Origin: an uncultured Acidimicrobiia bacterium
GTDB taxonomy: Bacteria > Actinomycetota > Acidimicrobiia > Acidimicrobiales > AC-14
Length of the DNA: 64,000 nt
Direction: 5' to 3'
Assembly: GCA_963836205.1 (NCBI GenBank)
Contig: CAWIIV010000006.1
Location: forward strand, 1-64,000
A model generated the notes under the pieces. The model did not search any database. It was not told the origin of the DNA and worked only from the letters and a program-made list of their open reading frames with translations. The position numbers were made by a program, and so were the translations under genes. Below, one piece after another: positions 5,227 through 10,770 of the stretch (the first letter of the stretch is position 1; each line of letters starts with the position of its first letter).

Positions 5227-6555
5227 CTAACCGAGGAGATCGGCCAGCGCGTGGAGCAACAGGCCGGCCCCCGCGCCGACGACGGTTCCGTTGATGCGGA
5301 CGTACTGGAGGTCGGGGCCCAGGAGCAGCTCCAGCCGCGACGCCGTCTCCTCCGCGTCCCAGCGGGCGATGGTGGTACCCACCAGCCCCGCGATCTCGCC
5401 CCGGAAGTGCTCGACCACGTAGGACACGAGGGTCTCCAGGATCGCCTCGGCCCGGGCGGCCAGCGTGGGGTCGGCCTGCAACGTGCGGCCGGCGCCGACG
5501 ATGCCCTCGGCCAGGCGCAACCTGAGCCTCGAATCCGGATCGGCCGCCTCCGCCCGCAGCTGGTCCTTGGCGTCGGCCCACAGATCGGCCACCCACCGTT
5601 GCAGCTCCGGCTGGTCGAGGAGGTCACGCTTGATCCGCTCCCCCCGTTCCCGCAGCTCGGGCGACGTCTCCAGGGCCTTGGCCAGCTTCGCCAGCCGCAG
5701 GTCGAGCTCCCGGCGCAGCTCGTGGTGGGGGTTGCCCTCCATCTCGGCCAACATCCCGCAGAACCCGTCCAGGACCCGTTCGAACAGCTTGTTGTCGACC
5801 GCGCCCGGGATCCACCAGCGCGACGACTTGCCCAGCTGGGCCCGCAGGTCGTTGCGGTGGTCCTCGATGTAGCGCCGGAGGGCGCCCAGGGCCCGGTCGA
5901 GCACCTGGTCGTGACGGCCCTGGCGGGTGGCGAAGCGCAGGGCGTGGCCGGCGAGGGGCGCCAGCGGCACCTGCTCCACCCGGTTGCGGACCACGCCCTC
6001 GATGGCCTGGTGGACGTCGTCGTCGCGCAGCATGTCGGCCACCGCCACCACTGCGTCGGCCGCGTCGGCCGCCAACCGGGCCGCGTTGGCCGGCTCCGAC
6101 AACCAGTCCGCCAGCCGCCCGACCACGCCTGCCCCCCGCAACCGGGCAACGATGGCGTCGGCGGTGAGGAAGCTCTCCTGGATGAACTCGCCCAGGGTGG
6201 CCGCGAACTGGTCCTTGCGCTCCACCACGATCGCGGTGTGGGGGATGGGCAACCCCAGCGGCCGCCGGAACAGGGCGGTGACCGCGAACCAGTCGGCGAG
6301 GCCACCGACCATCGATGCCGCCGCGGTGGCCTGGAGGTAGTCGGCCCACGTGGAGTCGCCGCCCCACACGCCGACCACCACGAACACGACGCTGACCGCG
6401 GCCAGCAGCGATGTCGCCCGCCGCTTCGACACCGTCAGCTGCCGGCGCCGCTCCTCCTCCGACCGCAGCGCGGGCCGAGGCAACGATGACGGCGGCGGCG
6501 GCGGCGGCGGCGGCGGCGACGGCGGCGACGGCGGCGGCTGGTCGGTCACGGCCAC
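5227..6555 (-). CDS. DUF445 family membrane protein
   Basis: MVGGLADWFAVTALFRRPLGLPIPHTAI and DLQYVRINGTVVG signatures. Confidence 0.9.
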   Translation of the reverse strand: MAVTDQPPPSPPSPPPPPPPPPSSLPRPALRSEEERRRQLTVSKRRATSLLAAVSVVFVVVGVWGGDSTWADYLQATAAASMVGGLADWFAVTALFRRPLGLPIPHTAIVVERKDQFAATLGEFIQESFLTADAIVARLRGAGVVGRLADWLSEPANAARLAADAADAVVAVADMLRDDDVHQAIEGVVRNRVEQVPLAPLAGHALRFATRQGRHDQVLDRALGALRRYIEDHRNDLRAQLGKSSRWWIPGAVDNKLFERVLDGFCGMLAEMEGNPHHELRRELDLRLAKLAKALETSPELRERGERIKRDLLDQPELQRWVADLWADAKDQLRAEAADPDSRLRLRLAEGIVGAGRTLQADPTLAARAEAILETLVSYVVEHFRGEIAGLVGTTIARWDAEETASRLELLLGPDLQYVRINGTVVGAGAGLLLHALADLLG

Positions 6556-6596: not shown

Positions 6597-8195
6597 ATGG
6601 ACATCGTCCAGGGGTTCGGGCTGGTGGCGGTGGTGCTCACCGTGTCCGCCCTGCTGGCGGGAGTGGTGGAACGGGCGCCCCTGACGTTCCCGATGCTCTT
6701 TCTCGGCCTCGGCTTCATCCTGGCCGACGCCGACCTCCTCCGGGTCGACCCCCACTCCGAGGTGCTCGAGGGCGTCGCCATCTTCACCCTGGCCCTCGTC
6801 CTGTTCCTCGACGCGGTGAACCTGGAGATCGAGGAGGTCCGGGGCGACTGGCTGGTGCCGGCGTTGGCGCTCGGCCCGGGCACGCTCCTCACCATCGGCG
6901 GCATCGCCCTGGCCGCGTCGTGGCTGGTCGGCCTGGAGCTGGTGCCGGCCCTCCTGGTGGGGGCGGTGCTGTCGTCGACCGACCCGGTGGTGCTGCGCGA
7001 CGTCATCCGCGACCGGCGCCTGCCCCGCTCCGTCCGGCGGGCCCTCGGTGTCGAGGCCGGCACCAACGATCTCGTCGTCCTGCCGATCATCCTCGTGCTC
7101 ATCGCGGTCGCCAACCACGAGGCGGGCAGCGCCGCCGGATGGGCCGGTTTCGCGGTCAAGCTCGCCCTCATCGGGCCGGTGGCGGGCGGCGTGGTGGGCG
7201 CCCTCGGCGCGTGGCTGATGACCCGAGCCGACGAGCGCTACGGCATCCGCCGGGAGTACCAGTCCCTCTACGGCATCGGGCTGGTGCTGGCCGCCTTCGC
7301 GGTGGGCGACGCCGTCGGCGGCGACGGGTTCCTCGCCGCCTTCGCCGCCGGGGCCGCCATCACCTTCTTCAACCACCAGCTGTGCAGCTGCTTCCTCGAG
7401 TTCGGCGAGGTGGTGGCCGAGATGGCGATGCTGCTGGCGTTCGTCCTCTTCGGCGCCGTCCTCTGGGACGTGATCGGGCTGGCGCCGAGGCCGGAGGCGC
7501 TCGTGCTGGCCGCCATCGCCGTCCTCCTGGTACGGCCGTTGGTCATGACCGCCCTCCTGCGAATCGAGCACGCCCGCCTCAGCCGGGAGGCCCGCCTGTT
7601 CATCGCCTGGTTCGGGCCTCGGGGGCTCAACTCGCTGCTGTTCGGGCTGCTGGCGTTCGACGCCGGGGTGGGCGACGAGACCACCTTCGCCGTCATCGGG
7701 ACGGTCGTGCTGGTGTCGGTGGTGGTCCACGGGGCCTCGGCCACGCCCGCGGCGTCGTGGTATGCCCGGCGGATGGCGGCCGCCACCCTGGAGGAGGAGC
7801 GGTCGTCCACCGCCAGCGGCCTGTTCACCGACGACGAGGACGACGTGCCCCGGGTGACGGCCGACGAGCTGGCGGCGCGGTTGGCGGACGAGGGCGACGA
7901 GGCCCGCCCGGTCGTGCTCGACGTGCGGTCACGGGCGGGATACCTGCACGACCCGGTCAAGGTGCCGGGGGCGGTCCGGGTGCCGCCCGACCAGGTGGTG
8001 GAGTGGGCCACGGGCGAGAAGCCTCATCACCCGATCGTCCTCTACTGCAATTGACCGAACGAGGCCACGAGCGCCCGTGCGGCGCTCCAGCTGAAGGCCA
8101 AGGGCTTCGACGCCGGCGTCCTCGAGGGGGGCATGGACGGATGGCGGACCGACCACGAGGTGGAGCCGATCGGGCCGATCGACGAGGTCGCCTGA
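6597..8195 (+). CDS. CPA1 (NhaP-like) cation/H+ antiporter fused to a C-terminal rhodanese domain; probable selenoprotein (UGA at 8052-8054 read as Sec)
   Basis: Antiporter motifs LFLDA, STDPV, EAGTND, WFGPRGL. Rhodanese VLDVRS...YCN[UGA]PNEATSARAALQLKAKGFDAGVLEGGMDGW continues in frame past the UGA to TGA at 8193-8195, 3 bp from the convergent cobT stop. Confidence 0.85.
8069..8087 (+). promoter_or_regulatory. Candidate bacterial SECIS hairpin
   Basis: GAGCGCC-CGTGC-GGCGCTC: 7-bp perfect stem with GU in the apical loop; 21 nt separate the in-frame UGA from the loop. Confidence 0.65.
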
Positions 8196-8198
8196 GCG

Positions 8199-9260
8199 CT
8201 ACTTCTCGCTGACCCCGGCGGAGTCGAAGGTGGCCATCTCCCGGAGGACTCGGGCCGCGGCCTCGACCACCGGCAGGGCGAGGCAGGCCCCGCTCCCCTC
8301 GCCCAGGCGCAGGCCGAGGTCGAGGAGCGGTTCGAGGCCGAGGTGATCGAGGACGGCGGACGCCCCCGGTTCCGACGAAAGGTGGCCGGCGATGCAGAAG
8401 GGGAGCACCCCCGGGGTCAGGCGGACCGCCACCAGGAGGGCGGCGTCGGCGATGACCCCGTCGATCACCACCGGGACCCGGGCCGCGGCCCCACCCACGA
8501 CGAACCCGGCCAGGGCCGCGATCTCCATCCCGCCGAGGGCGGCCAGGGTGGCCAGCGGACCGGCGGCGACGGCCTCTCCGTGGCGGGCGAGGGCGGCGTC
8601 GACCACCGCCACCTTGTGGGCGAGGGTGACGTCGTCGATCCCCGTCCCCCGGCCGGTGACCTCGCTCGGCGCCCTCCCGGTGAGCGCGGCGATGAGGGCA
8701 GCCGCGGGGGTGGTGTTGCCGATGCCCATCTCCCCCGTGACCAGGCACTTCGCACCCCCCGCCACCAGGTCGGCCGCCACCTCGGCGCCCACGTCGAGGG
8801 CGGCCCGGGCCTCGTCGACGGACATGGCCGACTCGACGGTGAAGTCGGCCGTGCCCGGGCGCACCTTGCGCCGCAGCAGTCCCGGGGACTCGTCGAGGAC
8901 GCTCGCCACCCCGACGTCGACGACAACCACCTGGGCGCCCGTCTGGCGGGCGATGACGTTGATGGCGGCCCCCCCGGCGCAGAAGTTGGCCACCATCTGG
9001 GCCGTCACCTCCTGCGGCCACGGCGACACGCCCTGGGCCAACACCCCGTGGTCGCCGGCGAACACCGCCACTGCGGCCGGGGAGGGCAGGGGCGGAGGGC
9101 AGACGCCGGCGATGCCCGCCAGCCGGATGCCGAGGTCCTCCAACCGCCCGAGTGCGCCCCGGGGCTTGGTCAGCCGGTCGTGGAGGACGGTGGCCTCCAC
9201 CAGGGCCTCGGTGGCGAGGGGTCCGATATTGGCCACCGCCGCGTCGAACAGGCTGGTCAC
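8199..9260 (-). CDS. cobT: Nicotinate-nucleotide--dimethylbenzimidazole phosphoribosyltransferase
   Basis: LTKPRGALGRLE, FAGDHGV, GEMGIGNTT, LRLGEGSGA, EMATF motifs. Confidence 0.95.
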   Translation of the reverse strand: MTSLFDAAVANIGPLATEALVEATVLHDRLTKPRGALGRLEDLGIRLAGIAGVCPPPLPSPAAVAVFAGDHGVLAQGVSPWPQEVTAQMVANFCAGGAAINVIARQTGAQVVVVDVGVASVLDESPGLLRRKVRPGTADFTVESAMSVDEARAALDVGAEVAADLVAGGAKCLVTGEMGIGNTTPAAALIAALTGRAPSEVTGRGTGIDDVTLAHKVAVVDAALARHGEAVAAGPLATLAALGGMEIAALAGFVVGGAAARVPVVIDGVIADAALLVAVRLTPGVLPFCIAGHLSSEPGASAVLDHLGLEPLLDLGLRLGEGSGACLALPVVEAAARVLREMATFDSAGVSEK

Positions 9261-9274
9261 CCGCTCACCCTCTC

Positions 9275-9490
9275 ACGGCGCACAGGCGGCCACGAAGTCG
9301 GCCACGAAGTCGGCCACGATAGACCAGTCCGCCGCGTCTGCTCCCGGGCCCCGGCCCGGGCGGCGGCCGAGGCGGCCACGTTGCCCACGATCGAACGGGT
9401 CCGCCGCGCCTGCTCACCCACACCCGGCCCCTGCCCGGGCGGCGGCGCAGGCGGCCACGAAGTTGGCCACGATCGACGGGTCGCCGCCCG
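9275..9490. repeat. Degenerate tandem triplication (~70-75 bp unit) of the 3' end of cbiA
   Basis: The motif aggcggccacg...ccacgat..a....gt(c)cgccgc occurs near 9283, 9370 and 9449. Confidence 0.65.
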
Positions 9491-10770
9491 GGTGGTGGTG
9501 GAGGTAGGTCGCCATGAGCGAAGGGGTCGCGTGGCCGTCGTCGTGGCGGGCGAAGCGGCCCCGCAGCTCGAGGGCGTCGCCGGCCGGGTCGACGGTGGAG
9601 TAGTGGAACTCGTGGCCCCGCAGCTCGGTGAGGGCCGGTCCCATGGGGCTGACGACGGTGGTCCGGGCGGTCCGGTAGCCGAGGCGGAGGCGATCGGTCA
9701 TGGTGGCGGCGGCGTCAACCACGCCTGCCATGGGGTGGCCGTCGAGCTCGCGGCACAGCCAGGCCAGGCCCCCGCATTCGGCCCACGTGGGCAGGCCGGC
9801 GACGACCCGGCGGTGGACGTCGGCCAGGAGGGCCTGGTTGTCGGCCAGCTCGGCGGCGTAGGTCTCGGGGAACCCCCCGCCCACCAGCAGTCCGTCGACA
9901 TCGGTCGGCAGGGCCTGGTCACGGAGGGGGTCGAAGGCGACGGCCTCGGCCCCGGCCGCAGCCAGGGCGTCGAGGGTGTCGGTGTAGGTGAACGTGAACG
10001 CCTGCCCGCCGGCGACCGCGACCCGGGTCGGCCGGGCCGCGGCCTCGGGCAACGCGACCGGCCCGCCCCCGGCCAGGGGCGGCGCCGACCGGGCCAGGGC
10101 CACCACCGCGGCCAGGTCCACCCGGTCGGCCACCGCCGCCGCCAGGGCCGCCAGCGAGGCCGCCACCTCGTCCGGACGCTCGGCCACCGGCACCAGACCC
10201 AGGTGGCGGTCGCGCCACACCAGGCGGTCGTCCCGTCCGAAGGGCGCCCAGCACCGGGACGCCGAGCGGCTCCAACGCCTCCCGGAGGAGCACCTCGTGG
10301 CCGTCGGACGCCACCCGGTTGAGCACCACGCCCCCGATGCCGACGGTCGGGTCGAGGGTGGCGAAGCCGTGCACCACCGCCGCCACCGACGACGACTGCG
10401 CCGCGGCGTCGACCACCAGCACCACCGGGGCGTCGAGGACCCGGGCGATGTCGGCTGTCGAGGACGGCGAGCCGTCGGCCGCCCCGTCGAACAGTCCCAT
10501 CACCCCCTCGACCACGAGCAGGTCGGCGCCGGCCGCGGCCCGGGCGGCCAGGGGCCGGATGGCGTCGAGCCCGCAGAGCCAGGCGTCGAGGTTGCGGGGC
10601 GGGCGCCCGCAGGCGAGGGCGTGATAGCCGGGATCGATGAAGTCGGGGCCGACCTTGGCCGCCGCCGGCCGGTGGCCCGCAGCCCGGAGGGCGGCCAGCA
10701 GGCCGGTGGCCACGGTGGTCTTCCCGGCCCCCGAATGGGTGCCGGCCACCACCAGTCGGGGACCGATCAC
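9414..10770 (-). CDS. cbiA: Cobyrinate a,c-diamide synthase (CbiA/CobB), one frameshift near 10235
   Basis: N-half GTHSGAGKTT, KVGPDFIDP, VEGVMGLFDG; C-half GGGFPE, AECGG, RGHEFHYS in a second frame. Confidence 0.9.

Follow-up and report, generated by a model that had tools for sequence, protein, structure and literature searches.

A 64,000-nt stretch of an uncultured Acidimicrobiia genome (assembly GCA_963836205.1, contig CAWIIV010000006.1, positions 1–64,000; hereafter the window) was analysed with respect to the plus-strand gene at positions 6597–8195. This segment very probably represents a single gene encoding a 532-residue selenoprotein, in which a predicted NhaP/CPA1-type antiporter is followed by a rhodanese domain with a cysteine, an asparagine and a selenocysteine (Sec) in its loop, C484-N-U486. 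Recoding of the UGA at 8052–8054 by SelB and a selenocysteine insertion sequence (SECIS) hairpin in the coding region is well supported by the comparison of relatives. A first-pass annotation, made from the letters of the window alone, had proposed a Sec-containing CPA1 antiporter at this position. This proposal gained support from the pairing of TGA with cysteine codons among homologues, a hairpin specific to TGA forms, the presence of selA, selB, selC and selD in the genome, and the truncation of public records at the same point.

The frame that opens at ATG 6597 reads IVLYCN up to the in-frame TGA and, as had been described, runs on for 46 sense codons. The start was set at this ATG because the N-termini of homologues align there. 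The 3-bp gap previously reported to a convergent gene was also found, this neighbour being an open reading frame (ORF) at 8199–9260 on the minus strand that matches PF02277 (DBI_PRT, CobT type). The downstream codons had been thought to complete the rhodanese fold, and the Pfam PF00581 match, spanning residues 421–517, indeed crosses the UGA at residue 486. Standard annotation had been expected to truncate such genes. A database search with the C-terminal part retrieved 120 proteins, including 64 antiporters of the fused family, of which 58 stop exactly at the Sec column with the ending [YF]C[TN], while the remaining six are full length and carry Cys at that column.

Codons at column 486 were compared across 85 sources, comprising the window, four loci from relatives and 80 loci from species-representative genomes. 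TGA was found in 60, TGC in nine, TGT in three and TGG in two, with neither TAA nor TAG in any. The other 11 were left uncalled owing to a cut contig or a broken frame; one of them, L113, shows TGA under a looser pattern. Two records were duplicated, which leaves 58 distinct TGA sequences, and the same-genus matches L023 and L045 are the same contig at the same position. A homologue comparison had been suggested as a check; the relatives have TGA or a Cys codon here, and the sequence on both sides is conserved. The terminal stops of the same 74 called genes were mixed (TGA 31, TAG 29, TAA 14). After the UGA, the frame was open and its protein conserved in all 60 TGA forms, across phyla. Across several phyla, 54 full-length sequences showed no variation at L509, G512 and W516, and at least 90% of them retained S492, R494, A496, L499, G503, A506 and G511.

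Sequencing error was ruled out as the source of the stop, since 58 distinct sequences share this TGA, and a separate downstream gene was discarded because the Pfam Rhodanese domain crosses the UGA. The codon at 8052–8054, for which inspection of reads had been advised, was checked in assembled contigs of two other public runs (X1 record 2 and X2 record 7 carry the TGA), and no difference was listed; run X1 may be the window's own source sample. No RNA data set was listed for this stretch. Six rows come from unpublished genomes, namely the TGA forms L026 and L044 (one genome), L055 and L151, and the non-fused relatives L028 and L032. They enter the codon, hairpin and C-x-C comparisons and the stop counts, not the 54-row alignment A3; dropping them lowers the tallies by at most three and leaves the conclusions unchanged. 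Of note, two Dehalococcoidia assemblies (L102 and L103) have TGG (Trp) at the Sec column within a diverged YCSWHRE loop, and selA is present in both genomes.

The hairpin reported downstream of the UGA, with GAGCGCC (8069–8075), the loop CGUGC and GGCGCUC (8081–8087), is present and forms part of the minimum-free-energy fold, its loop lying 21 nt after the UGA. The nucleotides of the stretch AGCGCC-CGUGY-GGCGC hardly vary among the 58 distinct TGA forms, and its distance from the UGA is fixed. All five core pairs (GCGCC-CGUGY-GGCGC) are formed in 52 of these forms, compared with three of 14 non-TGA forms, and 82.5% of cells are paired, compared with 23–54% when the partner is slid by one to three columns. 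Third-position entropy at codons +6 to +10 amounts to 0.30, 0, 0.83, 0 and 0.37 bits, and four-fold sites just outside the hairpin show 1.8–1.9 bits; as read from the aligned sequences, such near-frozen synonymous sites are the signature of an RNA constraint over a coding constraint. In 58/58 TGA forms, the second base of the apical loop is G and the next one U or G. The consensus for bacterial SECIS elements in section 5 of PMC13188914 is a small apical loop, 16–37 nt from the UGA, with G among its first two bases. The CGUGC loop at 21 nt matches this published consensus and the hairpin is conserved and specific to TGA forms, so that the suggested comparison with known bacterial elements came out in its favour. 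Among 301 sampled genomes of the phylum, the same hairpin core follows TGA in 14 more fused genes and in one gene cut by a contig end. In one C-x-U rhodanese that stands alone (L131), the core after the TGA is almost identical, with one pair altered.

In this stand-alone gene (G276:C94:4359-4694, minus strand), the upstream frame is open for only 79 codons, and the score against NF041203, the model of the rhodanese_LYCAU family, is 108.4 bits, just below the cut-off. A groundwater metagenome provides a further contig (X2 record 8; 163 nt, depth 20) whose match is confined to the hairpin stretch, at 8051–8093 of the window. Its upstream context is Leu-Tyr-Cys-Ala-TGA, of the LYCAU type, and it appears to be a stand-alone relative with the same hairpin.

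The genome containing the window (4.05 Mb in 25 contigs, 88.6% complete) was searched for the Sec machinery, another of the checks proposed beforehand, and selA, selB, selC and selD were all found. The tRNA-Sec scored 66.3 bits against an Rfam cut-off of 47, and was called as tRNA-SeC with anticodon tca by ARAGORN. The adjoining selA (390 bits) and selB (264 bits) genes and selD (334 bits) exceeded their cut-offs. The same genome also has a frame resembling formate dehydrogenase that spans 896 codons or more and contains just one in-frame TGA. The context of this TGA, ARIUHSS, is similar to the Sec site of known formate dehydrogenases, and the frame is probably a second selenoprotein gene. In a co-occurrence sample of 50 of the 69 usable loci, selA was over its cut-off in 32/36 TGA-form genomes, 6/12 Cys-form genomes and 2/2 TGG-form genomes.

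According to record titles and tree labels, the fused family ranges within Actinomycetota over Acidimicrobiia, Rubrobacter, Thermoleophilaceae and Nitriliruptorales, and it also occurs in Chloroflexota (many classes), Thermomicrobiales, Acidobacteriota, Binatia and one Syntrophobacteraceae assembly. Sec forms are found in every major clade of the tree, with Cys forms nested between them. At least six changes of state are required by well-supported branches, in a quick tree with a midpoint root that leaves their direction undefined.

An AlphaFold model computed on the 54-row alignment (pLDDT 92.0, pTM 0.89) was used for the analysis of both domains (Table 1). The best fold matches of the membrane part were PaNhaP, SOS1, SLC9C1 and MjNhaP1. 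The S/T-D-P, N-D and G-P-R-G motifs align with PaNhaP and are conserved in 53–54 of 54 rows. N157-D158 is presumably the ion-binding pair of electroneutral CPA1 antiporters, and the T-D of the broken helix, the N-D and the Arg of G-P-R-G are taken here to be the ion-site residues of NhaP-like antiporters. The exchanger looks functional, its predicted ion-binding residues being intact. The cut-offs of the NCBIfam K+/H+ antiporter equivalogs NF003714–NF003716 were missed (best 135.6 bits versus 355).

Table 1. Features of the predicted antiporter–rhodanese selenoprotein gene and of a second candidate selenoprotein gene; positions are those of the window unless a contig is named.
Feature	Position	Strand	Basis
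Full predicted selenoprotein coding sequence, 532 residues plus terminal TGA	6597..8195	+	Sequence, homologue alignment
CPA1 / Na_H_Exchanger membrane domain, residues 16-387	6642..7757	+	PF00999, E 2.6e-36, 125.7 bits vs gathering 26.2
S127-T128-D129-P130, broken helix	6975..6986	+	Aligns with PaNhaP ATDP; S127 and D129 in 54/54 of A3
N157-D158	7065..7070	+	Aligns with PaNhaP N-D; N157 53/54, D158 54/54
Family-specific C263-S-C265, start of helix 264-295	7383..7391	+	Alignment, model
R342 of invariant G-P-R-G, at break of helix pair 330-338 / 344-355	7620..7622	+	Model, alignment
Rhodanese domain, residues 421-517, spans UGA	7857..8147	+	PF00581, E 7.3e-11, 42.9 bits vs gathering 22.2
Active-site loop C484-N485-U486, TGA 8052-8054 as predicted Sec	8046..8054	+	Sequence, codon comparison
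Internal TGA 8052-8054, then sense codons PNEATSARAALQLKAKGFDAGVLEGGMDGW...	8055-8192	+	Frame translation
SECIS-type hairpin: 7-bp stem, 5-bp conserved core (8071-8075 with 8081-8085), loop CGUGC 8076-8080	8069..8087	+	Fold, comparison
True terminal stop TGA	8193-8195	+	3 bp from end of convergent cobT-type gene
Formate-dehydrogenase-alpha-like frame, L127	G000 contig C7:161387-162733	-	Same contig as selC, selA, selB

In the rhodanese domain, the model shows a strand (480–483), then C484-N-U486, then a helix from residue 487, and C484 and U486 would share the active-site turn because the loop sits between this strand and helix. The linker residues E400, E401 and R402 are invariant in alignment A1 and kept in at least 90% of A3. 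The statement that DedA-type rhodanese domains carry a comparable motif held as well, 30 of the matches listed being DedA plus rhodanese with LYCNCPNE; it would seem that membrane proteins repeatedly carry a C-x-C/U rhodanese as their tail.

The C-S-C motif pointed out in the membrane domain was located as described, at residues 263–265. C263 is present in 54/54 rows of A3 and C265 in 52/54. C265 is missing from L074, which is a Cys form, and from L102, which is a Trp form; this loss alongside that of Sec is a weak hint of coupled loss. A C-x-C at this site was found in 64/64 fused-family database proteins and in 0/14 non-fused CPA1 relatives from related genomes, which indirectly favours the earlier idea that this motif could be a redox partner. 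Helix counting in the model places four membrane passes between the C-x-C and the rhodanese domain, so that C-x-C and C-x-U would be expected on the same side of the membrane. The restriction of the C-x-C pair to this family suggests a redox or chalcogen switch that may control transport.

The hairpin in the coding region very probably recruits SelB with Sec-tRNA(Sec), and the ribosome very probably reads the UGA as selenocysteine. The product very probably comprises a 13-helix Na+(K+)/H+ antiporter of NhaP/CPA1 type as its N-terminal part and a C-terminal rhodanese, presumably cytoplasmic. A role for the Sec can be suggested with less confidence. As a selenenylsulfide/selenol switch, the C-x-U pair would react with oxidants, or else with species of sulfane sulfur or selenium, and would communicate with C263-x-C265 to tune cation/proton exchange. 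The logic would be akin to that of other CPA transporters under the control of cytoplasmic C-terminal domains, such as SOS1, SLC9C1 and KefC. A C-x-U switch that talks to the membrane C-x-C and tunes exchange is the mechanism we prefer, and it is put forward tentatively.

Several results weigh against the interpretation given so far. The folding energy of the hairpin is ordinary (z = −0.97, with 29/200 shuffles folding equally well), and chance alone could give the open frame, as long open frames are common at the G+C content of the window. Since the hairpin is insignificant as a single sequence, the case rests on the comparison between relatives. Judged from sequence, the single-window evidence alone does not go beyond chance, and it is the comparative evidence that settles the question. 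Within that comparison, covariation support is thin because most hairpin pairs never vary: two double changes from C-G to U-A were seen at pair 21–33, and the outer pair 18–36 is CG in 20, GC in 10, UG in four, GU in two and unpaired in 22. RNAalifold retained only four pairs, with a covariation term of −0.12. An Rfam scan of 7900–8300 with E values up to 10 gave no match, a null that is uninformative for the hairpin as Rfam holds no model of it. Three Cys forms (L047, L049 and L074) still make the five pairs, and four of the 36 TGA-form genomes lack selA over the cut-off, in assemblies of 1.8–3.4 Mb whose completeness is not known. For the rhodanese, the NF041203 cut-off of 115 bits was missed (77.6 bits for the protein, 74.1 for the genome). 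The C-x-U motif of that family is found in C484-N-U486, and its stand-alone length of about 126 residues is not, as the domain sits behind a 400-residue antiporter. Alignments further disagree on whether C484 or U486 occupies the position of the canonical catalytic Cys: ungapped alignment to 3IWH places U486 on it, and alignment to 3O3W/3NHV places C484 on the first Cys of the 3O3W/3NHV protein. Finally, the absence of a conserved neighbour gene provides no pathway hint for the gating idea.

As to the three Cys forms, the five pairs of L047 and L049 at the hairpin position are built from different sequence, and L074 has a Sec-type hairpin sequence almost intact, as if recently converted.

The function of the paired motifs may be read in two other ways. 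The C-x-U loop, together with E489, and the membrane C-x-C might be a binding site for thiophilic metals or metalloids (Cu(I), Hg, Cd or As) that senses them or hands them over, with a role in metal resistance instead of redox sensing. The loop is devoid of the basic residues of anion-binding rhodaneses, E or D occupies position 489 in 54/54 rows, and there is a weak match to the model of the chromate-resistance rhodanese ChrE (33.6 bits versus a cut-off of 120), all of which fits this explanation. The loci provide no recurring metal-resistance neighbours, with no neighbour family in more than five of 68, and the ion site matches that found in ordinary Na+/H+ antiporters. A role in metal handling is somewhat less likely than the switch.

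Less likely still, the rhodanese could be a working sulfur or selenium transferase that is anchored to the membrane by the antiporter, or that uses local pH or ion flux, and has no regulatory role. Rhodanese domains are typically sulfurtransferases (Pfam PF00581), the occurrence of the C-x-C/U type in fusions with DedA membrane proteins as well points to a task close to the membrane, and the stand-alone form L131 exists. The membrane C-x-C pair, however, is found only with the fusion, the conserved linker residues argue for coupling of the two domains, and no recurring partner enzymes are encoded nearby. The neighbouring genes are of no help in deciding between metal binding, transfer and a switch.

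Turning to the UGA itself, it might be read through without Sec, either by near-cognate insertion of Trp or Cys or following a genome-wide reassignment. Low-level read-through without SelB occurs in bacteria, and TGG stands at the Sec column in L102 and L103. Such decoding is nonetheless very improbable: UGA is not reassigned, because it also terminates the antiporter gene and 30/73 other related genes; the genome has the full Sec machinery, and the TGA form tracks selA; homologues pair TGA with Cys, the usual partner of Sec; and the conserved hairpin agrees with the SelB-type consensus of PMC13188914. That the UGA is an ordinary stop, leaving a 485-residue antiporter with half a rhodanese and 46 downstream codons as a decaying remnant, is the reading of the public annotation, with 58/64 matched antiporters ending at [YF]C[TN], and chance does make long open frames in G+C-rich DNA, yet it is extremely improbable given that the downstream frame is open and conserved as protein in all 60 TGA forms across phyla, that the internal stop is always TGA where the true stops are mixed, that the hairpin is conserved at synonymous sites, and that truncation would, according to the model, cost the rhodanese its final helices and strand.

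The surroundings of the gene were also inspected. The flanking ORFs of 68 loci were compared all against all, setting aside the antiporter gene itself and frames overlapping it, and no conserved neighbours were found, no neighbour family occurring in more than five loci. The ORF lister had given the antiporter a longer version starting at ATG 6411, for which there is no homologue support. This version crosses a run rich in GGC/GCG triplets at 6470–6545, upstream of the gene, which on the minus strand encodes the proline-rich N-terminus of a divergent DUF445 protein (5230–6555). At 9417–10770 (minus strand), a cobyrinate a,c-diamide synthase-like gene is split into two overlapping ORFs in different frames, with CbiA/AAA_26 at 9922–10770 and GATase_3 at 9417–10220. 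A frameshift, a broken gene or an indel in the assembly may lie behind this split.

Among known systems, the closest to the C-terminal part is the rhodanese-like selenoprotein "form 3" (C-x-U; NF041203 rhodanese_LYCAU), which is listed in PMC13188914 and PMC9312934. The two share the rhodanese fold and the C-x-U at the same loop, and the hairpin core of L131 is nearly identical; the family is stand-alone, with about 126 residues, whereas the domain studied here is the tail of a 13-helix antiporter. None of the 301 genomes sampled in the phylum reached the NF041203 cut-off. In DedA–rhodanese fusions (PF09335 + PF00581, LYCNCPNE), a membrane protein likewise ends in this rhodanese subtype, which is 38–47% identical to the domain studied here; the membrane partner differs, and all those listed have Cys instead of TGA.

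For the membrane part, NhaP-type CPA1 antiporters (PaNhaP, 4CZ8/4CZ9; MjNhaP1, 4CZB) share the fold, with TM-scores normalised to the target of 0.69–0.73, and the T-D, N-D and G-P-R-G stretches align with PaNhaP. The archaeal NhaP proteins are about 20% identical and have neither a rhodanese tail, nor Sec, nor a C-x-C at the corresponding helix start. SOS1 and SLC9C1 likewise have a CPA membrane domain followed by a cytoplasmic C-terminal domain, and the titles of their structure entries name auto-inhibited and cyclic-nucleotide-bound states. KefC, a CPA transporter with a cytoplasmic regulatory tail, is gated by glutathione adducts. The regulatory tails of these three transporters have unrelated folds, none being a rhodanese and none containing Sec.

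Transport proteins with predicted Sec have been reported before, and PMC13188914 names an E1-E2 ATPase (UxxC), an SO_0444 Cu/Zn efflux protein (UxC), YeeE/YedE and a mercuric transport protein. These resemble the present protein in having Sec in a membrane transport protein; they belong to other superfamilies, with no CPA antiporter and no Sec in a rhodanese domain among those named. Literature searches retrieved no paper describing a Sec-containing cation/proton antiporter, although supplementary tables of selenoproteome studies, and of the large screens cited there, may list one. The terms "antiporter" and "exchanger" have no occurrences in the main texts of the recent selenoproteome papers PMC13188914, PMC9312934, PMC12013277 and PMC13326102. 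The C-x-U rhodanese selenoprotein is already known, and the literature searched contained no report of such a domain fused to an antiporter. The protein might possibly be the first selenoprotein of the CPA superfamily, widespread and unannotated in soil Chloroflexota, Actinomycetota and Acidobacteriota, in which exchange between C-x-U and the membrane C-x-C gates Na+(K+)/H+ exchange in response to oxidants, persulfides or selenides, or thiophilic metals. As a whole, this extended proposal is speculative.

Public records of this transporter family are missing the last third of what would be a regulatory domain, including its reactive residue. As 58/64 proteins are cut at the Sec codon, functional and structural inference from such records would be wrong, and the truncation affects dozens of soil bacteria. 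The family is a compact and testable system that combines a single gene with two Cys/Sec motifs and includes naturally occurring Cys and Trp variants. It would link two separate fields, the redox chemistry of selenoproteins and the way in which CPA antiporters control ion and pH homeostasis, and would add a membrane selenoprotein to the ecology of soil Chloroflexota, Actinomycetota and Acidobacteriota.

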